From positions 1 to 40,968 of IMG/VR virus record IMGVR_UViG_2579778871_000004: a stretch of 40,968 nucleotides of DNA; one strand, written 5' to 3'. Within the stretch, counting starts at the first letter, position 1. Each line of letters begins with the position of its first letter. The stretch is from a virus (lineage: Duplodnaviria; Heunggongvirae; Uroviricota; Caudoviricetes). This document shows, in pieces, positions 2,776 to 38,901 of the stretch. The notes beneath the pieces were generated by a model that was not told the origin of the DNA, searched no databases, and was given only the letters and a program-made list of their open reading frames with translations. Position numbers and translations under genes: made by a program.

Positions 2776-3087
2776 TTATTCGATGCGTACTCCTGGTATT
2801 TCGCCTTTTGATATTGCTAAGTCATAAATTTGCGCGGCACTATATCCATCCCGCATCCATGAATCTAAGGCGCGAACAGCCTCGCTACGCTTTTTATCTT
2901 CTCTCTCATTTTTGATATCAACGAGGACATCAACGCAATTAAGGCAAATGTGGATTTTGTCCTTACATTCGATCATGGCGGCTTTACCATGATTTCCGCC
3001 ACACAGTGAGCATAAATCTTCAGGGTCCGGCTGGTATTTCTGTAACGTTAGATGGTTGAATGTTGAACAGACCATAATCATCTCCAT
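2776..3087 (-). CDS. Cys-rich small protein (putative zinc ribbon), unknown function
   Basis: 103-aa ORF with CSLCGG...CLNC cysteine pairs; in the leftward early operon. Confidence 0.5.
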   Translation of the reverse strand: MEMIMVCSTFNHLTLQKYQPDPEDLCSLCGGNHGKAAMIECKDKIHICLNCVDVLVDIKNEREDKKRSEAVRALDSWMRDGYSAAQIYDLAISKGEIPGVRIE

Positions 3088-3146
3088 AAAACAAAACTCG
3101 CCGTAGCGAGTTCAGATAAAAGAAATCCCCGCGAGTGCGAGGATTG

Positions 3147-3431
3147 TTATTCATTGCCGATATTCACTTTTATCGCGAACACCTTTACCGGTTTATCACC
3201 GAAGTGCGGATGTGTGATTGTCTTGATTTCATATCCGTCATACGGGACGTTAATTCTGCGGCTGGAGTCGTCGCGCTTCGGGTATCCCTTTGTGATAATC
3301 AGGCGGTCATACTTACGGTTAACGAGGCGCTTTTTCCAGTAGTCATTACACAGTCGATGCTCTTCCGTTTTCTCCCCGCGAATCATGGCATCGAAGTATT
3401 CACCTTTGACGGCAAGTTGCAGGTTAGCCAC
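3147..3431 (-). CDS. ASCH/PUA-like small protein (DUF3850-like), unknown function
   Basis: 94-aa ORF; N-terminal LQLAVKGEYFDAMIRGEKTEEHR resembles the ASCH-domain signature (K.EYF.A...G.KT.E.R). Confidence 0.45.
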   Translation of the reverse strand: MANLQLAVKGEYFDAMIRGEKTEEHRLCNDYWKKRLVNRKYDRLIITKGYPKRDDSSRRINVPYDGYEIKTITHPHFGDKPVKVFAIKVNIGNE

Positions 3432-4104
3432 GGTTAACCTCCAGTTGTGGTGCTGCTTCTATAGCAGCCCTGTAACCAGCAGCATGACCGCGAAAGTTAG
3501 CAATCTCTGATAGCCACGCTTTAATCATGGCCTGAGTTGGTTCCTTCGGCACCATAACCCAACCATCCGGAGTTACCGGAGAGTTGCCAGCCAGTCTACG
3601 CAACACAGCCTTAACCGCCTCAATACGGTCATCATCAACTTTTTCTACAATATTGGAATTTAAATACTTCGAAGCCTTGCTATGCCAATCGCTGGTTTTA
3701 GGGTCTTGTCCATCCATCAAACGCCAAGCTTCAGCGATTAACTCATAGCCAGTAACAGTGGCTTCCTGCGCATCACCAATCAGTTGTGTGATCTCTCTTT
3801 CAAGCATACTTAGAGCGTTAGGCATTGGTTTTTCTTCAGGTACTACTGGCACTGGAGGGGCGGCATAAACAGGAATAACGTCCGATTGATCTTTATTGCT
3901 TTCATCCGTTAAAGCCCAGAATAATTTCCCGGCCGGATGTTTGAAAATATAAGCAACTGGTTCTGCTCCCAGTGATGCCAGTGCAATTTTTAATGCGGTA
4001 AGCATGTTGTTTTGATCTTCATCGAGTCCGAACGGTATTTCATCCCGTGCTGACTCAATGCTGGTAATCGTGTTCTGTAACCATTCTTTGGTAAGAGTAT
4101 TCAT
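3424..4104 (-). CDS. Hypothetical phage protein (226 aa)
   Basis: Long ORF, overlaps neighbours by a few nt on both sides (operon-like packing). Confidence 0.6.
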   Translation of the reverse strand: MNTLTKEWLQNTITSIESARDEIPFGLDEDQNNMLTALKIALASLGAEPVAYIFKHPAGKLFWALTDESNKDQSDVIPVYAAPPVPVVPEEKPMPNALSMLEREITQLIGDAQEATVTGYELIAEAWRLMDGQDPKTSDWHSKASKYLNSNIVEKVDDDRIEAVKAVLRRLAGNSPVTPDGWVMVPKEPTQAMIKAWLSEIANFRGHAAGYRAAIEAAPQLEVNRG

Positions 4105-4106
4105 AA

Positions 4107-4298
4107 CTATTTCACTTTAATCTCAATATTTCGCAGCTTTAGCTCTACTGGAAGGTCTGACTTTCCTGTTAATGCTAATGCGAGATTTTCAGGAGTAATG
4201 AGAGCAGTTATTGTTTTCCCCATCGCCAGACGAATAATCATTCGTATCTCGCAATCGTCACATGCTCCCGGTCGAACAATTGAGATTTGTCCGTTCAT
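4107..4298 (-). CDS. Hypothetical small protein (63 aa)
   Basis: ORF tightly packed between 3424-4104 and 4300-4878 on same strand. Confidence 0.45.
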   Translation of the reverse strand: MNGQISIVRPGACDDCEIRMIIRLAMGKTITALITPENLALALTGKSDLPVELKLRNIEIKVK

Positions 4299-4299
4299 C

Positions 4300-4878
4300 T
4301 CACTCCCCCTTCACACCAATGTTGGCGGCGGCGCGCTCGGCTTCACTTTGTTCCCAAAACCACTTGTGAAGCGCCATAAGCTTTTCGTCAATCGGTGCAT
4401 ATTTGCGATTAAAGTAGGCCTGAGCATCTTTCTCAGATTCGTCCGGTAATTCGCCAGGGCCAAACAGTGTGTTATAAATCCATGCCAGTCCGCTCTTAGC
4501 GTCGCCAGTTGCCTGCCATTCGATAATCGCAGCCTGCATGACCAGAATGTTTTTCCCGATTAATAGGTCCAGTTCTTTGTATCGGTTGCGGATGTATGCA
4601 TTCTCGCTTTGTAATTCAGCGTTGCGCTTCTCTGCGGCTTCCAGCTCAACACGCAGCTTCCCTACCGTTAGCGCAATATCTTCGTTCTCCTGGTCGCGGC
4701 GTTTGATGTATTGCTGGTTTCTTTCCCGTTCATCCAGCAGCGCCAGCACAATGTGTGGCGTTATCAAGGACTCAAATTCTGCAACAGCTTGCTCGCCTCG
4801 CTTGTAATTCTTAATCCCACCTAAATCTTTCGCGTTCTGTGCCGCCTCACGCAGTGCCTGATAGTCAATCTTGCTCAC
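4300..4878 (-). CDS. Ea22-like coiled-coil protein
   Basis: 192-aa ORF, GTG start preceded by AAAGGAGG; N-terminal QALREAAQ motif and central coiled coil typical of Ead/Ea22-like proteins; position matches lambda ea22 slot. Confidence 0.5.
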
Positions 4879-5042
4879 TGGCTGCCTCCTTTGCGCAACA
4901 TCGCATTCAGATATTTGTTGTCATTAACAGAACCGAAACTCTTTCTTTTAAGCAATTCCTCTCTCGATGGCATTGGCTTTACGCGTTGGCGAATAATCAT
5001 TTCTGCCGGAAGAATGCCGGGATTGTATGCAAGACCTCTCAT
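4875..5042 (-). CDS. Hypothetical small basic protein (55 aa), translationally coupled
   Basis: Hand-translated [58 protein letters not shown]; ATGA overlap with upstream gene stop, GTGA overlap with downstream start; below the 60-aa ORF-track cut-off. Confidence 0.4.
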
Positions 5043-5329
5043 GATTTACTCTCCACGAACTGGTCAACGGCCATGCTAAGTGACACACCTAAAGTCTCGA
5101 TATGCTGCTGAATATCCTGTAGCGTCTGCGCCTGAGATAACAGGATTTCACGGTTGCATAACTCTTTAACCAGATGCTCAAACTTGCTGTAATAACCGAT
5201 ACGGCTTAGTGTTTCTTTCCCTGCATTCTCGCCTTCTTTGATAATTCCTCTTTCGCTAAGAATCAGATCGTGTTTTGTTCCGGTAATAACGTATTTTCCG
5301 AGGTCGATGTTTAGCTTCATTGTTTTCAT
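5039..5329 (-). CDS. Hypothetical protein (96 aa from internal ATG)
   Basis: ATG at 5329 preceded by AGGAATTAACA; the upstream extension of the track ORF overlaps the neighbouring gene. Confidence 0.5.
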
Positions 5330-5339
5330 TGTTAATTCC

Positions 5340-5633
5340 TCAGTCATTACTGATAGCGCCATAGCGTGAGCGGTAATTACGCAGGCGCGGGTCGATTTCA
5401 GGGAAGTGGGTATATGTGGCTTTGCGGAATGGTCGGATTGATGTCTGGTAAATTCGCTCTCGTTCTTCTTTCTCTGCAAGCCATATGCAGTGGCGAAACT
5501 CCTTTTCCTCTTTCGTTTCCTGCGGTAGAGACATTATTCGATCGTAGTTTTTTCTGAATTTATCCAGCACCTCCGATACGGAATTGCCGGAACAGCGGCG
5601 CGCGTCGTCCGCACCATACAGAGGCGCTGGCAT
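5340..5633 (-). CDS. Hypothetical protein (97 aa)
   Basis: ORF in same leftward operon immediately downstream of ssb. Confidence 0.5.
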   Translation of the reverse strand: MPAPLYGADDARRCSGNSVSEVLDKFRKNYDRIMSLPQETKEEKEFRHCIWLAEKEERERIYQTSIRPFRKATYTHFPEIDPRLRNYRSRYGAISND

Positions 5634-5646
5634 GATTTTCTCCTGA

Positions 5647-6153
5647 TTAAATTGCGTGAATAGCGTGACGAGGGAAGGGGAGAGTTACTGGTGCAAAGGG
5701 TATATCGTCGTCAAAATCCATCGGAGGTTCGTTGTGTTGTGCTGGTGATGATTGCTGCTGTGGCTTCTGTGATTGCCTGCTGGCTGCTTGTTGTTTGCTG
5801 TCGCCAATGCCGCCAAGCATTTGCATCACGCCATTAATTCCGACATGAACCTCGGTTGTGTAACGGTCTTGCCCTGACTGGTCTTTCCACTTTCTGGTTC
5901 TCAGCATTCCCTCGAAATAAATCTGATCACCTTTTTTCACATACTGCCCCACGACCTCAGCCAGTTTCCCGGATACAGCAACACGATGCCATTCAGTCAA
6001 TTCCTTTTGCTCGCCAGTATTTTTATCTCGCCATTGTTCTGACGTGGCTATTGTCAGGTTAGCGAACGCTGTTCCTGATGGTGAGTATCGAACTTCCGGG
6101 TCTTGTCCTACCCGACCAAGGATAATCACCTTATTTACGCCTCTGCTTGCCAT
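5647..6153 (-). CDS. ssb: Single-stranded DNA-binding protein
   Basis: 168 aa; OB-fold N-terminus ([18 protein letters not shown]...), Gln/Pro-rich linker, acidic C-terminal tail DFDDDIPF. Confidence 0.85.
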
Positions 6154-6861
6154 TTATGCCGCCTGTTTTAGTTCGTTAACTCTGATGTTCATTACCTGAA
6201 CGCATTTAGCCTGCGCCTCCTCGTTGCCAGCCATTAATTGCCAGTCACGCTGATAACGCTCGATGAGTTTTTTCTTGTCAGTTTCTGTTGACGCATAATC
6301 GCTGAAGTCTTTCAGGATTTGTTCGCAGTCAACCGATGGTGATTTCTGGTTGGTATTTTCTGGTGATGGTTTGTTATCTGATGCTGGGATTGCCCATCCA
6401 GGCAGCGATGGAGGGAGCCAGTAAAATCCTGTTCCATCTTTCAGTTTTGCCCTGTGCCATCCCTGCTTTTTATCGAGAGATGTTTGTGCGAAACCTTCCT
6501 CAAGGTTATACAGATACCGACCGATTCCCCACTGAACGGCAGCGCGCTTCATTGCACCGGAACGACCACCTTTGACGGCTTCTACCTGCGTGTTTTCAGC
6601 AGCATCCCATTTGGTTACCCATTCGGAATCAATCTTTATTGATATGCCGCATTCAACGCCGCCGTTGTTGGGAATATCGCGGTATTCATTGCGCCATCCT
6701 GCTTTGCCGCAAACATCGTCCAGGCGTTTCATGATTGCCCGGTTCGTGACATAAGCCAGCACCATAGCCCACACTTTGCCATCGCGTGTTTTACCGCTTT
6801 GCTGTATTCGCCATTCGATATCTTCAGGGCTGAATGGCTCATCGAATTTATTCAAATCCAT
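6154..6861 (-). CDS. Rad52-like single-strand annealing protein (Sak-type recombinase)
   Basis: 235 aa; GGVECGISIKID...GGRSGAMKRAAVQWGIGRYLY resembles the Rad52/Sak annealing core; paired with ssb in place of lambda exo/bet. Confidence 0.55.
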   Translation of the reverse strand: MDLNKFDEPFSPEDIEWRIQQSGKTRDGKVWAMVLAYVTNRAIMKRLDDVCGKAGWRNEYRDIPNNGGVECGISIKIDSEWVTKWDAAENTQVEAVKGGRSGAMKRAAVQWGIGRYLYNLEEGFAQTSLDKKQGWHRAKLKDGTGFYWLPPSLPGWAIPASDNKPSPENTNQKSPSVDCEQILKDFSDYASTETDKKKLIERYQRDWQLMAGNEEAQAKCVQVMNIRVNELKQAA

Positions 6862-6948
6862 AATTCACCTCAGAATGGACACGGCCCAAGGAAATAACGC
6901 TGATTTAATACTTCAGTCTTTGCCGCATTTAAAAATACGCGAACACCT

Positions 6949-7992: not shown

Positions 7993-8021
7993 TGCCAAAA
8001 ATAAAGGCCGACTATGCGGCC
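7993..8021 (-). terminator. Rho-independent terminator just downstream of the 208-aa gene
   Basis: Minus-strand hairpin GGCCGCATAGTCGGCC followed by TTTATTTTTGG; overlaps the gene stop codon. Confidence 0.5.
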
Positions 8022-8635
8022 TCGGAAGGAAGTCCAATCATCTTATTCAAATCTTCTACCCGTAAAGCAGGAAGTGCTGTACTTGCTTTATCTGCTTCTT
8101 TTGGTAGCAATTCTTTGCTTTCAGGCCAAACTTCAATAAGTCGCTTAACTGTTGTGACTGAGTTCAAAGCAGCCCATACATTTGATTCGATATCCTTTTT
8201 CAAGGCTTCAAGGTTTTGTTGCAATGCGCAGATTTCATCAAACCTTTTTGTTATTTCGTGTTCTGCGTCAAACATGCATTTATCTTTAGTCGGAGTAGGG
8301 AGCAATATATCTTCGCCGTTGCCGTCTTTCCCATATGAATGCCATCCAACCCTTCTGCCAGATACAGTCAGATAAATTGAAGTAGAACGAACATCGTATG
8401 AGTAAAATGAACATCCCATCTTTTCAAGTTCTTCACTTATAGCCATTAAGTTTGATGCCAGCTTGTCCACTTCCTCAGTTTTCTTTTTCCCGCCAAACGC
8501 AATAACTCTGGCGTCAAGTGCAAGCTGGTTCTTTAACTTTGTTACTTCTTCAAGTTCAGTGAAAACCCCAGACTTAATTAAAGCGTTACGAGCGATTTCC
8601 TCTTTCATTCTCGTAGTTAAGCGGATTGATGACAT
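8012..8635 (-). CDS. Hypothetical protein (207 aa from ATG at 8635), pL-operon accessory gene
   Basis: Strong RBS GAGAGGAATTAAT-ATG; no family recognised; flanked by terminators. Confidence 0.6.
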   Translation of the reverse strand: MSSIRLTTRMKEEIARNALIKSGVFTELEEVTKLKNQLALDARVIAFGGKKKTEEVDKLASNLMAISEELEKMGCSFYSYDVRSTSIYLTVSGRRVGWHSYGKDGNGEDILLPTPTKDKCMFDAEHEITKRFDEICALQQNLEALKKDIESNVWAALNSVTTVKRLIEVWPESKELLPKEADKASTALPALRVEDLNKMIGLPSEAA

Positions 8636-9440: not shown

Positions 9441-9713
9441 TCATCTCGCCGTCAGTTGTTTTGATTTCCGGTAGCCTGCCGCGTAAATGGCTACGTTTGG
9501 CAGGCAAATACTTCCACTGCATTCATCTGCCTTCTTGCAGCGAAGGCTTCCGAGTGATGCTGCTTTATCTGCCCTGACGCAACCAGAGAGCTTTAGCGCA
9601 ATCTTTCGCGCCAGTCGCTGTTCTTGCATTGCCTGTTCACGTTGAGCCTGTCTGCGTGCTCTGCGGCGATTTCTGGCGTTATCGTCAGCTAGATATGTAA
9701 TGACGACTGTCAT
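9441..9713 (-). CDS. N-type transcription antiterminator (P22 gene 24 type)
   Basis: 90 aa; N-terminal arginine-rich motif NARNRRRARRQAQ; C-terminus ..YAAGYRKSKQLTAR recalled as matching P22 gp24; first gene downstream of nutL. Confidence 0.7.
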   Translation of the reverse strand: MTVVITYLADDNARNRRRARRQAQREQAMQEQRLARKIALKLSGCVRADKAASLGSLRCKKADECSGSICLPNVAIYAAGYRKSKQLTAR

Positions 9714-10080: not shown

Positions 10081-10449
10081 TTAGTCAGCGAAGGTTAAGA
10101 CGAGAATTACCTTAATGATGTCTGCTACAACAGACACGGCCATAGATAAACCAAAGACGATCCAAGCCATAGAGATGTCTTCACTACCATCGTATAGAGT
10201 TCCGTAATCACTGGTGTAAGGTGTAAATGTCGCGCCTTGATACAATAGGTATAAGCTTGATCCATAGAGGATAAATGCAGATATCCCTTGTATTGCTATG
10301 ACCACTAGAATCATGAAACGAGCTGTTCTATGCGCCCAAGCCTGGCTTATTTTTTCTGATAGAGATTTCGCAATAAAAGCATGCGCTAATCCGTAAATTG
10401 TCGAGATTGCCAACATCCCAAAAAAGCTTGCTATAGCGGTTCCAACCAT
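10081..10449 (-). CDS. Small integral membrane protein co-transcribed with the repressor (rex-position gene)
   Basis: About 122 aa from ATG at 10449 with RBS AAGGGG; three predicted TM helices; starts 17 nt after the cI stop. Confidence 0.55.
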   Translation of the reverse strand: MVGTAIASFFGMLAISTIYGLAHAFIAKSLSEKISQAWAHRTARFMILVVIAIQGISAFILYGSSLYLLYQGATFTPYTSDYGTLYDGSEDISMAWIVFGLSMAVSVVADIIKVILVLTFAD

Positions 10450-10466
10450 AAGCGCCCCTTGCGTGA

Positions 10467-11183
10467 TCAAACCAGCCTTAGTTTTGTCTCAATTGCAACG
10501 CCTATAATCTTGCAGTTTCCATTGATTGGCACGAGAGGCCATGCAGGGTTAAGTCCCTTGAGGTATTTATTTCCGCCGTCGATTATCAGCTTCTTGAATG
10601 TTGCTTCGTTAGAGTCAGAAAGTTTTGCTATGACCAAGCTGCCGTTGATCGCCTCCCTTCCGGTATCGAAAAGAACGAATGTTCCCTCTGGAATGCTTAA
10701 CCCAACCGGTGCCGTCATTGAATCACCTTCCACTTTAAGCCAGAACGCATTACCTTGAATATGCGCGTCAGACTCAAGCCAAACATCTATGTCTTTAATG
10801 GTGTATGGTTCGCATGCTTCACACCACGAGCCAGCCTGGATACTGCTTAACACCGGATACCTCTTTCCTGCTCTGTATTCCCCTGCATACCTTACGTTGG
10901 CATCGCTCTTAAGGCTTTCTGCCTGTTCTGCAACCTTGGCAGAAATTGACTGGCTAAAATCAGCAATTGAGACTTGCAACAATCGTGCAAAACCAGATGC
11001 AACCTCAACGTTTAGCGCGTTTCTGCCATTAAGATAATGCCCTACCGCTCCTTGGGTGATACCCAGTTCATCAGCGATTGAGTATTGGGTTATTCCCAAT
11101 TCTTTCTTTTTTGACTCATACAAAGCCTTAAGCCGCTTAGCGTCTTCGAGCTGTTCTGTCGTCAGTGATTTTTTATTTTCCAT
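10467..11183 (-). CDS. cI: CI-type prophage repressor (HTH plus LexA-like S24 autopeptidase domain)
   Basis: 238 aa; N-terminus resembles lambda cI (LTQEQLEDARRLKA..), C-terminus has FWLKVEGDSMTAP and ATFKKLI..NPAWP motifs as in lambda cI and P22 c2. Confidence 0.9.
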   Translation of the reverse strand: MENKKSLTTEQLEDAKRLKALYESKKKELGITQYSIADELGITQGAVGHYLNGRNALNVEVASGFARLLQVSIADFSQSISAKVAEQAESLKSDANVRYAGEYRAGKRYPVLSSIQAGSWCEACEPYTIKDIDVWLESDAHIQGNAFWLKVEGDSMTAPVGLSIPEGTFVLFDTGREAINGSLVIAKLSDSNEATFKKLIIDGGNKYLKGLNPAWPLVPINGNCKIIGVAIETKLRLV

Positions 11184-20889: not shown

Positions 20890-21174
20890 GTCATTACAAA
20901 GCCTATCTACGGGTGGGCTTGATAATGAAACCGGAATTTATTCTGGGCCACCAGTTAACGGCAGTACCACGAAACAACCCAAGCTAGTAAGTGGGGAAAT
21001 AACACTGGCAGTCACTGAAAGATGAACCTCCAGCCTTATGGCAAAAAAGATTCTTTGTGGTGGCGGACTGATGGAAAGACATCGGATAGAATCAAGCAGT
21101 GGCTAGGGTAGCTCCCGAAAAGCGGACTCGTCACCGCCTGCCACTGAATCTATGGCGAACAACAAGACGAGGTT

Positions 21175-22286: not shown

Positions 22287-22775
22287 ATGGCAGCACCAAA
22301 GGGCAACCGATTTTGGGAGGCCCGCAGTAGTCATGGGCGAAATCCTAAATTCGAATCGCCTGAGGCGCTGTGGGCTGCTTGTTGTGAATACTTCGAGTGG
22401 GTAGAAGCTAACCCGCTATGGGAGATGAAGGCGTTCTCGTATCAGGGTGAAGTGATACAAGAGCCTATCGCCAAGATGCGAGCGATGACCATTACCGGCC
22501 TCACTCTGTTCATTGATGTGACGCTTGAAACATGGCGCACATATCGCCTGCGAGAAGATTTATCTGAAGTCGTTACGCGAGCAGAACAGGTCATCTACGA
22601 CCAGAAATTCTCTGGCGCAGCCGCTGACCTTCTCAACGCTAACATCATCGCCCGTGATTTGGGCCTCAAAGAGCAGTCGCAAGTTGAAGACGTGACACCT
22701 GATAAGGGAGATCGCGATAAGCGACGCTCTCGTATCAAGGAGCTATTCAACCGTGGAACTGGACGCGATTCTTGA
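22287..22775 (+). CDS. Terminase small subunit (P22 gp3 type)
   Basis: 162 aa from [22 protein letters not shown].., recognised as P22 gp3-like; gene contains a pac-like sequence. Confidence 0.8.
22555..22579. other. Putative pac site for headful packaging
   Basis: AAGATTTATCTGAAGTCGTTACGCG inside the small terminase gene resembles the P22 pac site as recalled. Confidence 0.4.
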
Positions 22776-24252
22776 TAACCTGAGCGACGAAGAGCAAATC
22801 GAATTGCTCGAGCTACTCGAAGAAGAAGAGAACTACCGTAACACACACCTGCTATATGAATTTACGCCATACAGCAAACAGCGTGAGTTCATCGACGCCG
22901 GGCATGACTATCCAGAGCGATGTTTTATGGCTGGTAACCAGCTTGGTAAGTCATTTACTGGTGCTGCTGAAGTCGCGTTTCACCTTACCGGGCGTTATCC
23001 GGGCACAAAAGGCTATCCGGCTGATGGTAAATATGGTGGGGAGTGGAAAGGTAAGCGTTTCTATGAGCCTGTTGTCTTCTGGATTGGCGGCGAGACAAAC
23101 GAGACTGTAACCAAAACGACTCAACGCATCCTGTGTGGTCGTATCGAAGAGAATGATGAGCCAGGCTACGGTTCCATACCTAAAGAAGACATCATTAGCT
23201 GGAAGAAGTCTCCTTTCTTTCCGAACCTTGTTGATCATCTTCTGGTTAAGCATCACACGGCTGATGGCGTTGAAGATGGCATTTCAATCTGCTACTTCAA
23301 ACCATACTCGCAAGGCCGCGCTCGCTGGCAGGGTGACACAATCCACGGCGTGTGGTTTGACGAAGAGCCACCATACAGCATTTATGGCGAAGGCCTTACC
23401 CGTACCAACAAATACGGGCAATTCTCAATTCTGACGTTTACCCCGCTGATGGGGATGTCTGACGTTGTTACCAAGTTCCTGAAGAATCCAAGCAAGTCGC
23501 AGAAAGTGGTCAACATGACCATCTACGACGCTGAGCACTACACAGACGAACAGAAAGAGCAAATCATCGCATCTTATCCTGAGCATGAGAGAGAGGCGCG
23601 TGCTCGCGGTATTCCTACGATGGGTAGTGGTCGAATCTTCCAGATACCGGAAGAGACGATTAAGTGTCAGCCGTTCGAGTGTCCTGATCACTTCTACGTA
23701 ATTGGCGGGATGGATTTCGGATGGGATCACCCGCAGGCGCAGGTTCAGCTTTGGTGGGATAAGGACGCAGACACAATCTACGTTTCACGCGTGTGGAAGG
23801 CGAAAGAAAAAACAGCGGTTCAGGCATGGGGAGCTGTTAAATCATGGGCGCATAAAGTGCCAACCGCATGGCCTCATGACGGAAACCAGCATGAGAAGGG
23901 CGGCGGTGAGCAGCTCAAAGGGCAGTATGCCGACGCTGGTTTTATGATGTTGCAGGAGCATGCGACATGGCCTGATGGCGGTAACGCTGTGGAGCCTGGC
24001 ATCACTGAATTGCGCGACATGATGCTCGATGGTCGCTTCAAAGTATTCAACACCTGTGAGCCATTCTTTGAGGAGTTCCGCCTCTATCACCGTGATGAAA
24101 ACGGGAAAATCGTCAAGCTTAACGACGACGTTCTCTCAGCCGTTCGCTATGCATACATGATGCGCCGCTTCGCAAAAATGATGCGCGACATCAAAAAACC
24201 AAAAGAGAAAAAGATACCAGCCCCAATCAGGCCCATCGCACGGAGAACTTAA
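22753..24252 (+). CDS. Terminase large subunit (P22 gp2 type)
   Basis: 499 aa, ATPase and nuclease domains; overlaps small subunit end. Confidence 0.9.
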
Positions 24253-26418
24253 ATGGCCGACGAAAACAGACTCAATTCCATTCTGTGTAAGTTTGACGCA
24301 GACTGGATGGCGAGCGATGAAGCCAGAACCGAGGCGACAAATGACCTGTATTTTAGCCGAGTGTCGCAATGGGATGACTGGCTATCAAACTACACTACCC
24401 TGCAATATCGCGGACAATTCGATGTTGTTCGCCCGGTGGTCAGGAAACTGGTCGCAGAGATGCGCAGGAACCCTATCGACGTTCTCTTCCGACCCAAAGA
24501 CGGCGCTAATCCTGATGCTGCCGATGTGTTGATGGGGATGTATCGTACTGATATGCGCCATAACACGGCAAAAATTGCCGTTAACGTTGGCGTTCGTGAG
24601 CAGATAGAGTCCGGCGTTGGTGCATGGCGTCTGGTCACGCAGTACGAAGACAACGACCCAACAAGCAACAATCAGGTAATCCGACGCCTGCCAATCCATG
24701 AAGCTTGCTCACACGTTATATGGGACGCCAACAGCAAGCAGATGGATAAGAGCGACGCTAAGCATTGCACGGTGATTAACGCCTTGTCGCGCAATGGCTG
24801 GAAAGAGTTCGCAGAGGATTACGGTATTGACCCGGATACCTTGCCATCTTTCCAGAATCCTAACGATACATGGCTATTCCCGTGGGTGTCGAATGATGTC
24901 ATCTACGTCGCTGAGTATTACGAGGTAGAAGAGAAGAAGGAGAAGGTCTTCATCTACCGCGACCCGCTGACAGGTGATCCGGTCAGCTATTACCAGCAGG
25001 ATATCAAAGACGTCATCGACGACCTGGCTAATCGTGGATTCATTAAGGTGGCAGAGCGCAAGGTGAAGCGTCGGCGTGTGTATAAGTCGATCATCACCTG
25101 CACGCAGATACTGAAAGACCGCGAGAAGATAGCTGGAGAGCATATCCCAATCGTTCCAGTGTATGGCGAATGGTCATTCGCTGGTGACAAGGAGTGCTAC
25201 GAAGGAGTGGTAAGGCTGACGAAAGACGGTCAGCGCCTTCGTAACATGATTATGTCGTTCAACGCCGATATTGTTGCTCGTTCACCGAAGAAGAAACCTA
25301 CCTTCTTCCCTGAGCAAATCGAAGGCTACGAATATATGTACGGTGGAAATGATGACTATCCGTACTATCTGCAGAACAAGACCGATGAAAACGGTAACGA
25401 CCTGCCGATTGGTCCAATCTCCTACATGGAAAACCCTGAAGTGCCGCAAGCCAACGCTTACATGCTTGAGGCTGCCACCAACGCAGTGAAAGAGGTGGCT
25501 AGTCTTGGCGTGGATGCGCAGGCGGCAAATGGTCAGGTCGCTTTCGATACCGTCAATCAACTGAACATGCGGGCAGACCTTGAGACATACGTGTTTCAGG
25601 ATAACCTGGCTACCGCAATGCGACGTGATGGCGAGATTTATGCCTCAATGGTCAACGATATTTATGACGTTCCTCGTCATGTAACGCTGACACTTGAAGA
25701 TGGAAGCGAGAAAGACGTTCAACTCTATGTGCAAGTTGTCGATTACCAGTCCGGCAATGTGGTCACACTCAACGACATTCGCGGTCGCTATGAGTGCTAT
25801 ACAGACGTCGGACCATCCTTCCAGAGTATGAAGGAACAGAACCGCGCAGAGATTCAGGAGTTACTCACCAAGGTTCCACAAGGTACTCCAGAGTTCCAGA
25901 TGCTGATGCTGCAATACTTCACGCTGCTTGATGGTAAAGGCGTCGAGATGATGCGAGAGTACGCGAACAAGCAACTGGTGATGATGGGGCTGAAGAAACC
26001 AGAAACACCTGAAGAGATGGAGATGGTACAGCAGGCTCAACAGCAGCCGCAGCAGCCATCAGCAGAGCAAATTCAGGCGCATGGTATCCTTCTGCAAGGT
26101 CAGGCTGAATTGCTCAAGGCAGAGAACCAACAGGCGCAGATTCAGGTTGAAGCCGCCAAGGTTGAAGCCCAAAACCAACTCAACGCCGCGAAGATTGCGG
26201 AAATCTTCAACAATATGGACCTCGACAAGCAGGCAGAACTGCGTGAGTACCTCAAGCTCGTAGGTCAATTCCAGCAACAGCGCAGCAAAGATGCTCGTGC
26301 TAACGCTGAGCTGCTTCTTAAAGATGCAGACCAGACTCATTCACAACGCATGGATTTCGCGAATCTTATGCGTCAAGTTCAAATCCCCTCCGGCGGAGTA
26401 GCCGAGACACCTCAATAA
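24253..26418 (+). CDS. Portal protein (P22 gp1 type)
   Basis: 721 aa with Gln-rich coiled-coil C-terminal barrel region. Confidence 0.9.
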
Positions 26419-26431
26419 GAGAGAGTTAACC

Positions 26432-27343
26432 ATGGACCAAACCACCGACATTCAGGCTTCTGAAGAATTAACCCTGCCCGGCAATCATGCAGCGGCATCT
26501 GCTGATGGCTTAGTTGTCGATAATGCCAACGACAACGCAAGTCAGGAAGAAGGCTTCGAGATTGTCCTGAAAGACGATGAGAAACCAAAACAAGACCCGG
26601 CAACTAATGCTGAATTTGCCCGTCGCCGCATCGAACGCAAACGCCAGCGTGAGCTTGAGCAGCAGATGGAAGCGGTTAAGCGTGGAGAGTTGCCGGAGCA
26701 CCTGCGGGTGAACCCTGAGTTACCAAAACAACCAGACCCTAACGATTATCTTTCCGAAGATGCACTGGCTAAGTACGGCTATGACCAGAGCCGCGCACTG
26801 GCTGCCTTCCAGCAGGCAAACAGTGAATGGCAGATCAAGGCTATGGACGCACGAAGCCAGGCTGTAGCCGAGCAGGGCCGCAAAACTCAGGAGTTCACCC
26901 AGCAATCAGCGCAATACGTCGAGGCAGCCCGTAAGCACTACGACGCAGCGGAAAAGCTCAACATCCCTGACTATCAGGAGAAAGAGGATGCATTCATGCA
27001 ACTGGTGCCGCCAGCAGTCGGTGCCGACATCATGCGCCTCTTCCCGGAGAAATCCGCTGCTCTCATGTATCACCTTGGTGCTAATCCTGAGAAAACACGC
27101 CAGTTGCTGGCGATGGACGGGCAATCCGCGCTGATTGAACTCACTCGACTGTCAGAACGTTTAACTCTCAAGCCTCGAGCCAAACCTGTTTCAGAAGCCC
27201 CGTTACCTGATGAACCCATTCAGGGACACGCTGTTGCTGCAAATATCTCTGCGATTGAAAAGCAGATGGAAGCAGCAGCAAACAAAGGGGATGTAGAGAC
27301 ATACCGCAAGCTCAAGGCGCAACTGAATAAAGGAATTCGATAA
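26432..27343 (+). CDS. Scaffolding protein (P22 gp8 type)
   Basis: 303 aa, helical, C-terminal coat-binding helix-turn-helix ...[13 protein letters not shown]. Confidence 0.85.
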
Positions 27344-28638
27344 TGGCATTAAATGAAGGTCAACTGGTCACGTATGCTCTGGATGAAATCATCGAAACCG
27401 TCCAGAACCTGACGCCAATGGCGTCCAAAGTGACAAAATACACCCCTCCGGCAGAATCCATGCAACGTTCAAGCAACACCGTGTGGATGCCTGTTGAGCA
27501 GGAAGCGCCAACTCAGACTGGCTGGGATTTAACTGGCAACGCAACCGGGATTCTGGAACTCTCCGTGAAGTGCAACATGGGCGATCCGGATAACGATTTC
27601 TTCGAGCTTCGTGCAGATGACCTGCGTGATGAGCGTTCTTACCGTCGCCGCATCCAGGCATCCGCCAAAAAACTGGCGAATAACATTGAGTCAGCGATTG
27701 CCAAACAGGCAACTGAAATGGGCTCGCTTGTTGTTCACGATACCCGCGCAATTGGTCCATCTACTGGCCTGTCTGGCTGGGATTTTGTGTCTGATGCAGA
27801 GCGCCTGATGTTCTCCCGTGAGCTAAACCGCGATATGGGCATCAGTTACTTCCTGAACCCGGACGATTACCGCAAAGCAGGCCGCAACCTGGTAGATGGT
27901 GACATCTTTGGGCGCGTTCCTGAAGACGCGTATCGCAACGGTACTATTCAGCGTCAGATTGCTGGCTTTGATGAAATTCTTCGCTCACCGAAACTTCCGG
28001 CAGTTACCAAGTCAACCGCTACTGGTGTAACTGTTTCTGGTGCGCAGAAGTTTAAGCCGCAGGCATACACCCTTGATACCGATGGTAACAAAGAGAACGT
28101 CGATAACCGTGTTGCAACGGTGACCGTATCCTCCACCACCGGATTTAAGCGCGGCGACAAAATCAGCTTCACTGGTGTGAAATTCCTGTCTCAGATGGCG
28201 AAGAACGTGCTGACTGATGATGCGACTTTCTCAATCACCCGTGTGATCGATGGTACTCACATCGAAATCACGCCGAAGCCGATTGCGCTTGATGACGCTT
28301 CACTGACAAAAGAAGAGAAGGCTTACGCTAACGTAAACACCTCTCTTGCTGATGCCACTCCGGTAAACGTTCTGAACGTGGCAACAACCACCGCTAACGT
28401 GTTCTGGGCTGATGACTCAATCCGCCTGCTGTCTCAGCCGATCCCGGTAACCCATGAACTGTTTGCTGGCATGAAAACGTCTTCCTTCAGCATTCCTGGC
28501 ATTGGTGTTAACGGCATCTTCGCAACGCAGGGTGATATCAACACTCTGTCTGGTAAGTGCCGTATTGCTGTGTGGTATTCAGCATGTGCTGTACGACCAG
28601 AGGCAATTGGTGTTGGTCTGCCTAACCAGACCGCGTGA
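27343..28638 (+). CDS. Major capsid (coat) protein (P22 gp5 type)
   Basis: 431-codon ORF recognised as P22 coat-like. Confidence 0.9.
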
Positions 28639-28645
28639 TAACCAC

Positions 28646-28670
28646 AGGGAGCTTAGGCTCCCTTTTCTAT
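28646..28670 (+). terminator. Strong hairpin terminator immediately after the coat gene
   Basis: AGGGAGC-ttag-GCTCCCT followed by TTTT. Confidence 0.6.
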
Positions 28671-28681
28671 TGGAGATACCA

Positions 28682-29275
28682 ATGAGCGTAATGATTTTTC
28701 AGGCTGGCGGAGATACCAAAATCTGGGGGCGCAAGCTGAAAACGAAAACCGTTGATCCTGATGATGTAGCTGTGCACTTAGCAAATGGCTGGTATAAGCA
28801 CCCTGACGATGTTCCTGATGATCATCTTGTTGGTGATCAAATTGGGAGTGTTGGCGGAGGTGAAACTTCCCCAGTTGATATGGGCGAAGTGTCCGACGGT
28901 TATCACACTTTTAACGAGCTTTACGCTCACCGAGTGCGCCTCTTCTCATCGCTGATGCATGCTTACGCTGAGCTTTCGTGGTGGTCTCGCAAACACAGTG
29001 ACGGTGAAGAGTGGGATGGCTGGATTATTGCTGGTATCACCACTCCAGAAGGCGAAATCACTTATCACCTACCTGTTGAAGAAATCGAGTTCCTTCCTGA
29101 AGGTACTGAGCTTGAGTTCGGGAAAGAGTGGGATGGTCATGAAGCAAATGATGTTCTTGGACGACTCCTGAGTTTGCGTCCGGCCATTGCAGAGCCAGAG
29201 CCAGAAAAAAAACAGCGTAAAAAGCCTAGTCGAAAACCTAAGGCGGCAGCAGATGAACCTGACAACGAAGGGTGA
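28682..29275 (+). CDS. Hypothetical acidic protein with Lys/Pro-rich tail (197 aa), between coat and gp4
   Basis: ATG at 28682 with RBS GGAGATACC; no family recognised. Confidence 0.5.
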
Positions 29276-29753
29276 TTTAGTCCTTGCGGCATTACGTAAG
29301 CTCGGTGTGGCATCAAATGCCACGTTAACCGATGTCGAACCGCAGTCTATGGAAGACGGCGTCAACGACCTTGAAATGATGATGGCTGAATGGCTTGGCG
29401 GTGATGTGTCACCTGGTATCAACGTTGGCTACATTTTCGCTGATGCAGATGTCGCTCCAGAACCGGGCGATGAGCACGGTTTATCAAATAACGCTATCAA
29501 TGCCGTCATTTTCAACCTTGCCTGCCGAATTGCTCCAGATTATGCGCTGGAAGCATCTGCAAAACTTATAACCACTGCCAGATACGGGAAAGAGCGACTC
29601 GTCAAACTGTCTGCAATGGACAGAGCAAAAGCCGCTAAATGTAAGTCCGGTTATCCAAACCGTATGCCTGTTGGTAGCGGTAATCAGTTGGCGAAGTGGA
29701 ATGGTTGGAATTACTTCCACCGAAAGGAACCTTGCGATAACGGGAGCGAATAA
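29253..29753 (+). CDS. Head-to-tail adaptor (P22 gp4 type)
   Basis: 166 aa from [33 protein letters not shown].., recognised as P22 gp4-like. Confidence 0.8.
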
Positions 29754-31171
29754 TGCCGATTCAGCAACTTCCGCTTATGAAAGGTGTCGGCAAAGACTTT
29801 CGAAACGCCGACTATATCGACTATCTGCCAGTGAATATGCTGGCTACACCCAAAGAAATCCTGAACAGCAGCGGATATCTTCGCTCATTCCCGGGCATTG
29901 CAAAACGTTCTGATGTGAACGGTATATCGCGCGGCGTCGAGTACAACATGGCGCAGAGTGCTGTTTATCGCGTGTGTGGTGGGAAGCTCTACAAAGGCGA
30001 AAGCGAAGTCGGTGACGTTGCCGGAAGTGGTCGTGTATCAATGGCGCATGGTCGGACATCTCAGGCTGTAGGCGTTAATGGTCAACTGGTAGAGTATCGC
30101 TATGATGGCACGGTTAAAACCGTCTCAAACTGGCCTGCAGATAGCGGATTCACTCAGTATGAGTTAGGTTCTGTTCGTGACATTACGCGCTTACGCGGGC
30201 GTTATGCGTGGTCAAAAGACGGTACTGATTCATGGTTTATCACTGATCTTGAAGACGAATCGCATCCTGACCGTTACAGCGCACAATATCGTGCCGAGTC
30301 TCAGCCGGACGGTATCATCGGTATCGGGACATGGCGAGACTTCATCGTCTGCTTTGGTTCATCGACGATTGAATATTTTTCCCTGACAGGTGCAACCACC
30401 GTTGGTGCCGCTTTGTATGTCGCACAGCCATCACTGATGGTGCAAAAAGGCATCGCCGGGACTTACTGCAAAACGCCATTCGCTGATTCTTATGCGTTCA
30501 TCAGCAATCCGGCAACAGGTGCTCCGTCTGTATACATCATCGGCTCCGGTCAGGTATCACCAATCGCCAGCGCGAGCATTGAGAAAATTCTCCGCTCCTA
30601 CACTGCTGATGAACTGGCTGATGGTGTGATGGAGTCTCTGCGATTTGATGCGCATGAGCTGCTGATTATCCATCTTCCGCGCCATGTTCTCGTGTACGAC
30701 GCATCTTCAAGCGCCAATGGTCCGCAATGGTGTGTACTGAAAACAGGCCTGTATGACGATGTGTACCGGGCTATCGACTTCATTTACGAAGGCAATCAGA
30801 TAACGTGTGGCGATAAGCTGGAGTCCGTGACCGGGAAATTGCAATTCGATATCAGCAGTCAGTATGGTCTTCAACAGGAACACCTGCTGTTTACTCCGTT
30901 GTTCAAAGCGGATAACGCCAGATGCTTTGATCTGGAGGTGGAATCATCGACGGGTGTCGCTCAGTACGCAGACCGCCTGTTCCTCTCTGCAACCACTGAC
31001 GGCATCAATTACGGGCGTGAGCAGATGATTGAGCAGAATGAACCGTTCGTTTACGACAAGCGCGTTTTGTGGAAGCGAGTAGGGCGCATCAGGAAAAATG
31101 TCGGCTTCAAATTGCGAGTTATCACGAAGTCACCTGTCACTCTGTCTGGCTGCCAGATAAGGATTGAGTAA
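29753..31171 (+). CDS. Tail hub protein (P22 gp10 type)
   Basis: 472 aa, same length and order as P22 gp10. Confidence 0.85.
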
Positions 31172-32019
31172 TGGCTGATTCGAATCTCAACACCCCTGTT
31201 ATTGTGCAGGCGACGCGGCTCGATACATCAATACTTCCACGTAATATCTTCTCGCAGTCGTATCTGCTGTACGTTATCGCACAGGGTACTGATGTTGGTA
31301 ACGTGGCTAACAAGGCCAACGAGGCCGGACAGGGCGCTTATGACGCACAAGTCAGGAACGATGAGCAGGATGTGATTCTCGCTAACCATGAGCAGCGAAT
31401 TTCTGCTGCGGAAGCAACGCTTGTTAATCATGAGGAGCGAATCAGTCAGGCAGAATCAACTCTTCAGGACCATGAAACACGAATAGCTCAGAATGAAAGC
31501 GATATTGCGTCGCTTGATACCAGAGTTCAGTCGCTGGAGTCGCAGGTTTCAGACCATGAAACGCGCATTGATGCTCTGGAGTATGCAACCACGCGCAAGA
31601 AGTCAGAGGTTGTTTACTCTGGCGTATCTGTAACCATCCCGACAGCGCCGACCAACCTTGTTAGCCTGCTGAAAACGCTCACGCCGTCATCAGGCACGTT
31701 GGCACCATTCTTCGACACCGTTAACAACAAGATGGTTGTGTTCAACGAGAACAAAACCTTGTTCTTCAAGCTGTCGATCGTCGGGACGTGGCCCAGCGGA
31801 ACCGCCAACAGGTCAATGCAGCTAACCTTTTCCGGCTCTGTTCCTGACACTCTGGTAAGCAGTCGCAACTCGGCGACAACAACCGATAACATCTTGTTAG
31901 CTACGTTCTTCAGTGTGGATAAAGACGGATTTCTTGCCACAAATGGCAGTACGTTAACCATTCAGTCTAATGGTGCGGCTTTTACTGCCACAACCATCAA
32001 GATAATCGCGGAGCAGTGA
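31171..32019 (+). CDS. Tail needle (P22 gp26 type) with C-terminal knob domain
   Basis: N-terminus [43 protein letters not shown] matches gp26; heptad-repeat coiled coil; extra C-terminal globular domain as in Sf6-type needles. Confidence 0.8.
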
Positions 32020-32474
32020 TGATTCAGTTCAAACCAACGCGAAACATCGACCTGATAGAAGCAGTCGGAAATCACCCTGACATTATCGCCGGGAGCAACA
32101 ACGGCGATGGATACGACTACAAGCCGGAATGCCGTTACTTCGAGGTGAACGTGCACGGGCAGTTCGGCGGAATTGTTTACTATCAGGAGATTCAGCCGCT
32201 GACCTTTGATTGCCACGCCATGTACCTGCCAGAGATTCGCGGATTCAGCAAGGAAATAGGGATGGCGTTCTGGCGATACATTTTGACCAATACCACCGTT
32301 CAGTGCGTCACATCGTTCGCCGCACGCAAATTCCGCCACGGGCAGATTTACTGCGCAATGATTGGCCTTAAGCGTGTCGGAACCATCAAGAAATACTTTA
32401 AAGGCGTGGATGACGTGACTTTTTACAGCGCCACACGCGAAGAACTAATCGACTTCCTGAATCACGGGAGATAG
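32016..32474 (+). CDS. gp14-position protein (152 aa)
   Basis: Assigned by position between the tail needle and ejection proteins. Confidence 0.45.
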
Positions 32475-32476
32475 CC

Positions 32477-33169
32477 ATGTTATATGCATTTAAGCTTGGC
32501 AGAAAACTGCGCGGCGAGGAACCTTATTGCCCTGAAAAAGGCGGGAAAGGTGGTAGCTCTGATAAAAGCGCAAAGTATGCAGCAGAAGCCCAGAAGTATG
32601 CTGCAGACCTGCAAAATCAGCAGTGGCAGACGATCATGAAAAACCTTGCTCCGTTCACGCCGCTTGCGGAGCAGTATGTTAACCAGCTTCAGAATCTTTC
32701 CAGTTTAGAAGGTCAGGGGCAGGCACTTAATCAGTATTACGATTCTCAGCAGTATAAAGACCTTGCAGGTCAGGCGCGTTACCAGAGTCTTGCTGCTGCG
32801 GAGGCTACGGGAGGACTTGGTTCGACAGCCACAAGCAATCAACTGGCTACGATCGCGCCGACTCTCGGTCAGTCTTGGTTATCAAACCAGATGAGCAATT
32901 ACAACAATCTGGCAAACGTTGGGCTTGGTGCGCTGCAAGGTCAGGCAAACGCTGGGCAGACATACGCCAACAACATGAGCAGCATTGCACAGCAAAGTGC
33001 AGCACTTGCCGCTGCTAATGCCAATAAACCATCAAGTCTTCAGACTGCAATTAGCGGTGGCACGTCTGGTGCGATTGCCGGTGCAGGTCTTGCCAGCCTT
33101 TTGGGAACATCAACACCTTGGGGCGCTGGCATTGGTGCTGGTATCGGATTGCTTGGCTCGTTGTTTTAA
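32477..33169 (+). CDS. Ejection protein (P22 gp7 type)
   Basis: 230 aa, Gln/Ala/Gly-rich with hydrophobic C-terminus. Confidence 0.75.
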   Translation: MLYAFKLGRKLRGEEPYCPEKGGKGGSSDKSAKYAAEAQKYAADLQNQQWQTIMKNLAPFTPLAEQYVNQLQNLSSLEGQGQALNQYYDSQQYKDLAGQARYQSLAAAEATGGLGSTATSNQLATIAPTLGQSWLSNQMSNYNNLANVGLGALQGQANAGQTYANNMSSIAQQSAALAAANANKPSSLQTAISGGTSGAIAGAGLASLLGTSTPWGAGIGAGIGLLGSLF

Positions 33170-33178
33170 GGGGTAATC

Positions 33179-34585
33179 ATGGCTACTTGGCAAGGAACAA
33201 ACGGCGGATTGTTGGCTGGTATCGGTGGCGTCAACTCAAACGCTCCGAGCGTAAATGACATCGGCAATACGCTTCAGCTTATCAGGCAGAACAATGATAT
33301 TGAGCGTTCAGGCGCTAACAATGTTGGGCTGACTGCTTTGCAAGGCCTTTCAGGTATTGCGGGGGTGTTTCAGCAGGAAAAGCAGGCTCAGCAGCAGAAA
33401 GAATTTCAGCAGGCATACGCTAATGCTTATGCGTCTGGTGATCGCGGTGCTTTGCGTCAGTTGGCTACTCAATATCCAGACCAGATTGAATCCGTTCGTA
33501 AAGGCATGGGATTCATTGATGAAGAGCAGCGTAATTCTATCGGCACCTTAGCAGCTGGCGCACGCCTTGCGGCCTCGTCTCCAGAAGCAATGCAATCATG
33601 GCTGCAAAACAACGCCAAGGAACTGGCGCGCGTCGGCGTTGACCCTAACAACGTTGCTCAGATGTATCAGCAGAATCCTTCAGGATTTGGTGAGTTTGTT
33701 GATCACCTCGGAATGGCTGCTCTTGGTCCGATTGATTACTTCAATGTTCAGGACAAGATGGCTGGTCGTGAGATTGACAGAGGCAGACTGGCAGAGACAA
33801 TCCGCAGCAATCAGGCTGGAGAAGCACTTCAGGCGAGAGGGCAAAACCTTTCCTATCAGTCAGCAATGACTGGGCACAATATCGCAGCACAACGCTTGGC
33901 TCTGGATCAGCAAGAGTTCGGGTTTAAGATGCAGCAAGCGCAGGAAAAGGCTCAGCAGTTGATTAGCGAAGCACCTAAGCTGTCAGTAAACATGGAAAAA
34001 GGCATCGAGACGGCTGTAAACAATGCTACAGCATCATCAAACTCAGCCAATTCTATGAGTGCGCTTGCTCAACAGTTCAGAGCAGAAAAACCAACGACAG
34101 GTTTGTTCGGTAACGCACAGAACATGTTCGCAAAACTTACCGGAAGCGATACAACATTGCGTGATTTGCGCATTCGCCAAAATGCCCTTGTTAACAGTCA
34201 GGTTCTTAAATTCCTACCTCCCGGCCCAGCAACGGATAAAGACGTTGAGATCGTTCGACAGGGTGCGCCAACTGACATGGATAACCCTGAGACGGTCGCA
34301 AGATGGCTTGATGCAATGGCAAACCTTGAGCGACGAAACGCGCAGTTTAATGAGTTTAAAGCCGAGTGGATGAGCGCGAATGGCAACCCTGGACAATCGC
34401 GTAATGGCGGTCAGATATTGGGGTTGGATGTTAAAAAAGGTGAATCATTGGGGAGTGCCGTTAAGCGGTATATGTCAATGAATACTGACGCAGCGCCAGC
34501 ACAAGATTCGACACCTTCAGGAGAACCACGGAATCAGGTTGGATCATATACCTCAAAATCAGGCATTCAATTTACGGTGGAATGA
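33179..34585 (+). CDS. Ejection protein (P22 gp20 type)
   Basis: 468 aa, order and size as P22 gp20. Confidence 0.8.
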
Positions 34586-36423: not shown

Positions 36424-36442
36424 AAATGAACGCCAAGGAAGG

Positions 36443-36772
36443 CTATTTAATTCTCTTTTCAATGGCTGCAATTATTGCTTTTCCTGATGTTTCAGGAGAT
36501 TTTGTAGCCATATAAGACGAAAAAATCATGTCGGTCATTCTTTCATAACTTACTATTTCCCACTTAGCCAATGCATGGGACAGTTTGTAGTTGTCATCAG
36601 TTAGTGCCCTTATGGAATTTTTTAAGTGTTTATTCTCTTCTGTTAATCGCGCAATTTTTGTATCAATTTCATGTGAGCGATCTAATTCCTTAACCTGTTT
36701 CTTGAGGGCAGCTAACCCTGCATATAGTACGCAACAGGATATCCCAAGAGCGAGTACGACTATTTCTAACAC
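36443..36772 (-). CDS. Bitopic inner-membrane protein with coiled coil (109 aa), unknown function
   Basis: N-terminal TM LEIVVLALGISCCVLYAGLAAL followed by heptad-repeat region; opposite strand to the structural operon. Confidence 0.5.
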   Translation of the reverse strand: MLEIVVLALGISCCVLYAGLAALKKQVKELDRSHEIDTKIARLTEENKHLKNSIRALTDDNYKLSHALAKWEIVSYERMTDMIFSSYMATKSPETSGKAIIAAIEKRIK

Positions 36773-36890
36773 ACCAACCTCCTTAGTTTTTCGCAGGATA
36801 CCATGAAAAAAGTAAACATCTTTTGCCTACTTCACATTTGAATGGTTTGTCATTAGGATGTTTCCGGTTTTTTCAAATATGGAAATTGAT

Positions 36891-37310: not shown

Positions 37311-37318
37311 TAAATAGG

Positions 37319-37342
37319 ACCCACCTTCAGGTGGGTTTTTTG
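37319..37342. terminator. Bidirectional hairpin terminator between the lipoprotein gene and mnt
   Basis: ACCCACC-ttca-GGTGGGT followed by TTTTTT on plus strand; mnt stop codon lies in the loop. Confidence 0.55.
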
Positions 37343-37578: not shown

Positions 37579-37600
37579 GCCATCACTCCAAGTTAGTGTA

Positions 37601-37652: not shown

Positions 37653-37668
37653 ATGTTGTGAGGTGAAT

Positions 37669-37830: not shown

Positions 37831-37834
37831 AGTT

Positions 37835-38801: not shown

Positions 38802-38819
38802 CAGATAACCAACGCAACG

Positions 38820-38844: not shown

Positions 38845-38901
38845 TGCCCAAAATTCATCGTAGCCATGCTTCGGTGATTCCTTGTATCTGGAGCAAATTA
38901 A

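Follow-up and report, generated by a model that had tools for sequence, protein, structure and literature searches.

abc2 and a probable run of recombined ea/exo-xis accessory genes in the PL operon of an Escherichia coli prophage, a lambda/P22 hybrid

What are the six leftward open reading frames (ORFs) that fill positions 3424-5633 of the virus record IMGVR_UViG_2579778871_000004 (IMG/VR), and do they form a single unit? The whole record of 40,968 nucleotides (nt) was taken as the window, and all positions refer to it. A sequence-only reading had treated the block as cargo in which just one product, of 192 amino acids (aa), could be tentatively assigned. Both points need revision: besides the 192-aa protein we could assign Abc2, DUF5405, DUF2737 and an EaA-like protein, and the first gene, abc2, belongs to the recombination (Rec) module and not to any cargo. 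Very probably, abc2 closes the Rec module and the five further genes are accessory cassettes of the ea/exo-xis kind, assembled by recombination within the PL operon.

The first gene in the direction of transcription is the 97-aa ORF at 5340-5633 on the minus strand, which carries all six ORFs. Its product matched Pfam PF11043 along residues 1-97 of 97 (5.6e-63, 209.6 bits against a cut-off of 25) and PHROG 656, and showed 92.8% identity with P22 Abc2. It also matched the RecBCD-Abc2 complexes 8B1T and 8B1U at 2.8e-57, the only match that any block protein gave in the PDB sequence search. On its sequence we identify the product as Abc2, the anti-RecBCD protein of P22 type. The mechanism of Abc2 has been described, with Pro68 as the residue engaging the host PpiB (PMC9836394), and Pro68 is retained in the 97-aa ORF (…SIRPFRK…). 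At 93% identity, the product is predicted to bind the RecC subunit and alter the Chi response of RecBCD; the enzyme would be re-tuned as in P22, with host PpiB engaging Pro68.

Directly upstream of abc2 lie the other genes of the module. The ssb gene (5647-6153, minus strand; PF00436 at 1.6e-36) ends 13 nt before abc2, and ssb is preceded by the gene of a Rad52/Rad22-family annealing protein (6154-6861, minus strand; PF04098 at 5e-26). abc2 is the last gene of a Rec module composed of the Rad52-like annealing protein, SSB and Abc2. In a published study, the HK75 functional type of Rec module is composed of an anti-RecBCD protein, SSB and an annealing protein, and phages carrying an anti-RecBCD gene are reported to have few Chi sites (PMC12315714). 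The module found here is of the same type, with the three genes contiguous. The Chi site GCTGGTGG was absent from both strands of the 41-kb window, where about one would be expected, in line with the Chi scarcity reported there (PMC12315714). HK75 DNA covers 46% of the query at 98.6% identity. The HK75-type classification concerns the abc2 end of the block only; it does not extend to the five genes that follow.

These five genes follow abc2 in the order 96, 55, 192, 63 and 226 aa. The 96-aa ORF is located at 5039-5329 (length counted from the first ATG; a TTG-extended reading of 146 aa is also possible), the 55-aa ORF at 4875-5042, the 192-aa ORF at 4300-4878 with a GTG start behind AAGGAGG, the 63-aa ORF at 4107-4298 and the 226-aa ORF at 3424-4104. 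They are packed so tightly that only 13 bases of 3424-5633 are non-coding, in gaps of 10 nt (5330-5339), 1 nt (4299) and 2 nt (4105-4106). The 96-aa and 55-aa ORFs overlap by ATGA at 5039-5042, the 55-aa and 192-aa ORFs by GTGA at 4875-4878, and the 226-aa ORF overlaps the next gene downstream, a 94-aa ASCH-like gene (3147-3431, minus strand), by the 8 nt GTGGCTAA at 3424-3431. ORFs of at least 55 aa occupy 99.9% of the coding strand, while 1000 shuffles averaged 20% and never exceeded 71%. The sequence-only reading had described this packing and both 4-nt overlaps, and we reproduced all of its coordinates and lengths. The same six gene calls are present in a public assembly of the same DNA, E. 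coli CHS 77 (GCA_000692735.1, scaffold KK736485.1).

Dense packing and 4-nt overlaps are normal in phage early operons, and equally tight junctions were found nearby, at cIII/kil, Rad52-like/ssb and 226-aa/ASCH. Shine-Dalgarno-like motifs (GGAG, GAGGA, AAGGAGG) stand 4-8 nt ahead of five of the six block starts; the start of the 226-aa ORF alone lacks one. The overlapping stop and start codons may couple translation of neighbouring genes, and it is reasonable to suppose such coupling, most plausibly for the 226-aa ORF, which has no ribosome-binding site of its own. Scans of the block for Rfam families, tRNAs, repeats and composition revealed nothing.

How the block would be transcribed can be judged from its surroundings. 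On the same strand, rightward from xis (2467-2685), follow a 103-aa gene, the ASCH-like gene, the block, ssb, the annealing gene and a small gene; further right are kil, cIII, a DUF2528 gene, an Nmad5 protein gene, N (9441-9713) and later a cI-type repressor gene. In this hybrid of lambda and P22, the block is the promoter-distal portion of the early-left (PL) operon. Within 3424-5633 there was no promoter-like site, and the terminator scan gave no convincing terminator there, only a single weak site of 5 pairs. The first convincing leftward terminator-like hairpins past the block stand just after the ASCH gene, at 3145-3124 (9 pairs) and 3113-3094 (8 pairs). Upstream of the block, the same scan found several terminator-like sites at 8023-6938, so leftward transcription into the block would need antitermination. 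Considering the operon context, the lack of an internal promoter and the position of the terminators only after ASCH, transcription of the block genes from PL under N antitermination is a sound inference. The "delayed-early" timing given in the sequence-only reading is likewise reasonable from the anatomy and the comparison with lambda and P22.

The comparison with described phages places the block more exactly. The P22 ea region has the order abc2-orf56-eaE-orf45-eaF-eaD-eaI-eaA-eaG-eaC-xis-int. The block agrees with it in position and orientation within the early-left operon and in the order of an Ead-type gene, a gene of about 63 aa and an EaA-type gene. In P22, orf56, which encodes a DUF2737 protein, comes directly after abc2; the block has a DUF5405 cassette after abc2, and it lacks eaE, eaF, eaG, eaC and orf45. 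The similarity to EaD and EaA is confined to N-terminal modules, and the 63-aa protein is unrelated to EaI. The recombination genes differ too, with Erf, Abc1 and Arf in P22 but Rad52-like protein and SSB here, and int and xis here are those of lambda.

A shared order is also found in Shigella phage Sf6 (genes 19-25), with which the hka genes of HK620 are grouped: gp25 is Abc2, gp24 is DUF5405 (96%) and gp23 is DUF2737 (91%). Beyond these genes the two regions part, and gp22, another Ead-type protein (gp21) and the Lar-like gp20 replace the 192-aa, 63-aa, 226-aa and ASCH genes. Sf6 DNA matches only 50% of 3100-6900. For Sf6, "boundary sequences" at the cassette junctions have been published.

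With the exo-xis region of lambda (orf60a, orf63, orf61, ea22, ea8.5) the block shares its location between the recombination genes and xis, early transcription from PL, predicted for the block, and an Ea22-family gene. This region is variable and affects lysogenisation and induction (PMC10834534, PMC7093339). Only ea22 has a counterpart in the block, whereas orf60a, orf61, orf63 and ea8.5 have none; the recombination genes of lambda are Gam, Bet and Exo instead of Abc2, SSB and the Rad52-like protein. The block is the counterpart of the lambda exo-xis and P22 ea interval: it contains small co-oriented genes and an ea22/ead gene, it occupies the interval between Rec module and xis, and it is highly variable. 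It had been called the equivalent of the lambda "b/ea region". The ea part of this name holds (exo-xis/P22 ea, between xis and the Rec module); the b part does not, since the lambda b region is bounded by the tail genes and att and lies beyond int, and here the att core is at 1331-1345 and the block is between xis and ssb.

The variability was determined on 166 loci, 86 anchored on Abc2 and 80 on DUF2737, a set biased towards E. coli. In the 86 Abc2-anchored loci, DUF2737 was present in 86, the N-terminal part of the Ea22-like gene in 46, DUF5405 in 17, ASCH in 16, the 63-aa gene in 14, the C-terminal part of the Ea22-like gene in 7 and the parts of the EaA-type gene in 3-16. The best of these loci shares 58% of the block DNA, and at least 80% of 3100-6900 in one place was seen neither in any phage record nor in any complete genome of E. 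coli. Breaks in homology concentrate at gene boundaries (5620-5640, 5320-5340, 5040, 4880, 4300, 4080, 3440 and 3140), and breaks within the 192-aa gene were found at about 4620-4640, at 4740 and at 4840-4860. This pattern is classical cassette exchange at "boundary sequences", as annotated in Sf6; in the block, known cassettes stand in a new combination, of a kind already well described. The five genes would be small cassettes joined by recombination at gene boundaries, and at domain boundaries in two multi-domain genes. That the interval is a variable one, as the sequence-only reading had proposed, was borne out by the extreme variation among related loci; the opposite outcome, with all ORFs mapping to lambda ea genes and no variation, was not observed, as ea22 alone has a lambda counterpart.

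One of the two multi-domain genes is the 192-aa ORF. Its Ea22-like nature, suspected before, was confirmed by PF13935, which matched residues 2-93 at 4.1e-21 with 76.5 bits (cut-off 27). The protein is 63% identical to residues 1-78 of lambda Ea22 and 53% identical to residues 1-79 of P22 EaD. Homologues of 190-192 aa with 93-95% identity are common in E. coli and are named ead or Ea22-like. The BLASTP alignment with lambda Ea22 ends at residue 85, and the C-terminal domain is unlike that of lambda Ea22 as known from its nuclear magnetic resonance structure; a PDB search gave no match. The Ea22 family is described as having a shared N-terminus and coiled coil with exchangeable C-terminal domains (PMC10834534), and therefore a different C-terminus does not exclude the 192-aa protein from the family. 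Ea22 of lambda and Stx phages is tetrameric and favours lysogeny (PMC7093339, PMC10834534). By analogy with lambda and P22, the 192-aa protein may be an oligomer that biases the lysis-lysogeny decision, and the remaining small proteins may be dispensable modulators aimed at the host or at competitors.

The other multi-domain gene encodes the 226-aa protein, which is an EaA-type mosaic. It matched PHROG 60 at 3e-37 and is 71% identical to "EaA" of HF4s over residues 1-183; with P22 EaA the identity was 33% over residues 1-86 (E 9e-8), with a further match to the LAGNSPVxPxGW linker at residues 145-183. No Pfam family, DUF551 (PF04448) included, matched at E up to 0.1. In an alignment with its relatives the N-terminus varied and the middle (about residues 80-180) did not; at the C-terminus most relatives carry DUF551, where the 226-aa protein has a different and shorter module. 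A similarity of this C-terminus to lambda orf60a was rejected as not significant (E 0.27 in a database of nine sequences).

The 63-aa ORF matched PHROG 1222 at 2e-40 and no Pfam family, and its product shares 97% identity with a hypothetical protein of RefSeq whose gene has the same position. The gene occupies the position of P22 eaI, and its product showed no similarity to EaI. The family is small, with 48 matching representative clusters in 1.8 billion. Matches to repeats of large surface proteins (Flg_new, cadherin-like) were set aside, as they look like compositional noise. The ASCH-like gene downstream matched PHROG 625 at 7e-50, and its product shares 87-91% identity with proteins that bear an ASCH-domain annotation.

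The reading of the block as abc2 followed by ea/exo-xis cassettes has points against it. The single transcript, its timing and its coupling are inferred only, from the gene arrangement and from lambda and P22. At its C-terminus the Ea22-like protein has a domain with no relation to that of lambda Ea22, so the pro-lysogenic role may not transfer. Searches revealed no experimentally known relatives of the DUF5405, DUF2737, 63-aa and 226-aa proteins. The variants of the 226-aa gene are few, which makes its substitution ratio weak evidence. Finally, the prophage could be defective, and the window stops within the tailspike gene.

Among the other explanations, the strongest is that the five uncharacterised genes are an anti-defence or host-takeover set, at least one of which blocks a specific immune system through an undescribed mechanism. 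The five genes adjoin a counter-defence gene, abc2, in an early operon, they turn over extremely among relatives, and they encode small proteins under purifying selection. The neighbourhood of abc2 has been handled as an accessory region and used as a source of counter-defence candidates (bioRxiv 10.1101/2023.04.06.535777). Against this stands that the argument is guilt by association only: the Pfam, PHROG and NCBIfam searches matched no known anti-defence family, no dedicated anti-defence library being among those searched, and the NCBIfam scan of the block proteins gave nothing at all. The structural matches point to no target, and those exo-xis genes of lambda and Stx phages that have been studied act on lysogenisation and induction, not on immunity. 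We regard an anti-defence set as a tentative possibility, less probable by far than ordinary ea/exo-xis cassettes. It is somewhat more doubtful still that at least one uncharacterised cassette has a specific and undescribed activity of which DUF2737 would be the best candidate, with the rarer 63-aa and 226-aa proteins as alternatives. DUF2737, kept across at least four unrelated types of Rec module, might be an adaptor linking the recombination machinery or the control of RecBCD to the host, and the 63-aa and 226-aa proteins could be inhibitors of host defence.

The position of DUF2737 suggests another explanation, namely that it is an unrecognised accessory part of the recombination or anti-RecBCD module and not an "ea" gene. 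The 55-aa ORF matched DUF2737 (PF10930) at positions 1-51 of 53 (1.9e-30; 104.9 bits, cut-off 25). Its counterparts are P22 Orf56, at 75% identity, Sf6 gp23 and HK97 gp38. The 96-aa ORF matched DUF5405 (PF17399) with 25.4 bits against a cut-off of 21.6 and is 96% identical to Sf6 gp24; its structure model, with a predicted local distance difference test (pLDDT) score of 90, superposes on BFVD DUF5405 proteins with template-modelling (TM) scores of 0.75-0.85. DUF2737 followed abc2 in all 86 Abc2-anchored loci, and DUF5405 was present in about a fifth of them (17/86). In 69 loci the DUF2737 match begins 14 nt past the abc2 match, in the other 17 a DUF5405 insert precedes it, and no third arrangement was found among the 86. 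DUF5405 is an optional cassette with exactly one slot, between the Rec module and DUF2737.

Such constancy suggested an obligate pair of Abc2 and DUF2737. This was ruled out by the DUF2737-anchored loci, in which abc2 stood upstream in 69 of 80 and was missing in 11, by the mixing of alleles and by the gene's location in the Guernseyvirinae. In ten of the DUF2737-anchored loci, DUF2737, with or without DUF5405, follows a module of RecT, Sipho_Gp157 and a small helix-turn-helix-like protein, and in Cronobacter phage ENT47670 it follows RecT and an exonuclease. Across these module types DUF2737 adjoins the Rec module on its left, as at L127:1527-3168 and in L177, and on one metagenomic contig it is fused in frame to an ERF domain in an ORF of 207 aa (ERF::DUF2737, L107:2545-3168). 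These various Rec modules and the fusion favour a part in recombination; the fusion, however, comes from one metagenomic contig only and might be a deletion. The Stx2a phages have DUF2737 of 94% identity but Abc2 of 61%, so that the two alleles assort independently. In the virulent Guernseyvirinae, DUF2737 has no Rec gene nearby and stands among small genes that separate the lysis genes from the terminase genes, and lambda has no copy. The section consulted of the survey of Rec modules in 325 phages (PMC12315714) gives very few unassigned genes in canonical modules and does not name a DUF2737-like factor. A full-text literature search returned no functional work on DUF2737 or DUF5405. We consider it quite unlikely that DUF2737 is part of the Rec module, and a recombination-related role is possible but unsupported. 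DUF2737 is the one gene that stays constant where Rec module and ea genes meet in temperate lambdoid phages; it adjoins each type of Rec module sampled in temperate phages of enterobacteria and is not specific to Abc2.

Some of the ORFs might instead be decaying or spurious frames in a defective prophage. The 226-aa ORF gives the best grounds for this, as outside E. coli CHS 77 its exact sequence turned up in just one sequencing-run assembly, it has no ribosome-binding site, and its AlphaFold model is unusable (pLDDT 48). Its middle 100 residues are nevertheless invariant in 38 relatives, and the coverage of the strand by ORFs is above that of all the shuffles. Ratios of non-synonymous to synonymous substitution rates (dN/dS), computed against the window allele, were 0.04 for abc2 (76 variants), 0.07 for DUF5405, 0.11 for the 63-aa gene (18 variants), 0.18 for ASCH, 0.26 for DUF2737 (108 variants), 0.07-0.22 for segments of the Ea22-like gene and 0.21-0.42 for two segments of the 226-aa gene (few variants). 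All are well under 1, and purifying selection acts on every block frame with enough variants. The frames are intact here and in the homologues, with none of 24 homologues of the 63-aa gene disrupted; the exception is six DUF2737 matches containing stops, presumed to be alignments that overrun the stop of a shorter allele. A loss of these frames among homologues, which would have spoken against the block as coding sequence, was not seen, and decay is very improbable.

That the Ea22-like gene is a piece of a prophage-borne Dpd defence system is hardly credible: the PADLOC "DpdH" profile PDLC02890 does match residues 80-181 (4300-4640), the C-terminal domain, at 2.2e-37, but this profile is only 127 positions long and most likely goes back to a prophage protein under the wrong name, the eight proteins scanned with PADLOC include no second dpd component, the neighbours are ordinary phage genes, the relatives listed carry PF13935 (120 of 120) and mostly bear the name ead/Ea22-like (61 of the 68 with a source name), and a literature search gave no support. 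The only other PADLOC hit among the eight proteins was a marginal PtuA match (0.015) on Abc2.

The prophage around the block is a hybrid, with P22-like virion genes and the int, xis and att of lambda, inserted at attB beside ybhC in E. coli CHS 77. The left end of the window is inside ybhC, the lambda att core at 1331-1345 lies beyond int, and int and xis are 98.6% identical to those of lambda. The late region (22753-40968) is P22-like, with a tailspike head-binding domain and an antirepressor (both from Pfam) and a sar RNA; its ORF sizes agree with the terminase, portal, scaffold and coat genes of P22, by size comparison only. Two RNAs scored above the Rfam gathering score, the sar RNA, antisense RNA of the P22 ant region (37831-37898, minus strand, 95.6 bits), and an int-alpA RNA (21096-21158, plus strand, 45.1 bits).

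In the early-left region, the 103-aa gene (2776-3087, minus strand) encodes a product 97% identical to Sf6 gp19. Between it and xis we found a bidirectional terminator-like site at 2716-2735, a perfect GC-rich hairpin of 8 bp with T-runs on both strands. The gene of the Nmad5-family protein (PF18757, 1e-70; "nucleotide modification associated domain 5") occupies 8012-8635 (minus strand), with DUF2528 on one side and, on the other, sieB, which is on the opposite strand. A 129-aa gene at 10081-10470 (minus strand; PHROG 6534, no Pfam match) is directly downstream of the cI-type repressor gene and overlaps it, taking the position of rexA/rexB in lambda.

With a first gene that is the well-studied Abc2 and then the usual shuffled ea/exo-xis stretch, the block is ordinary and on its own of little weight. 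The annotation of its first gene is corrected to Abc2, a known modulator of RecBCD. Only the constancy of DUF2737 at the border of the Rec module and the single slot of DUF5405 are mildly novel. What the block shows is the way in which the early accessory region of lambdoid and P22-like phages is rebuilt from exchangeable cassettes, with the breaks at gene and domain boundaries.

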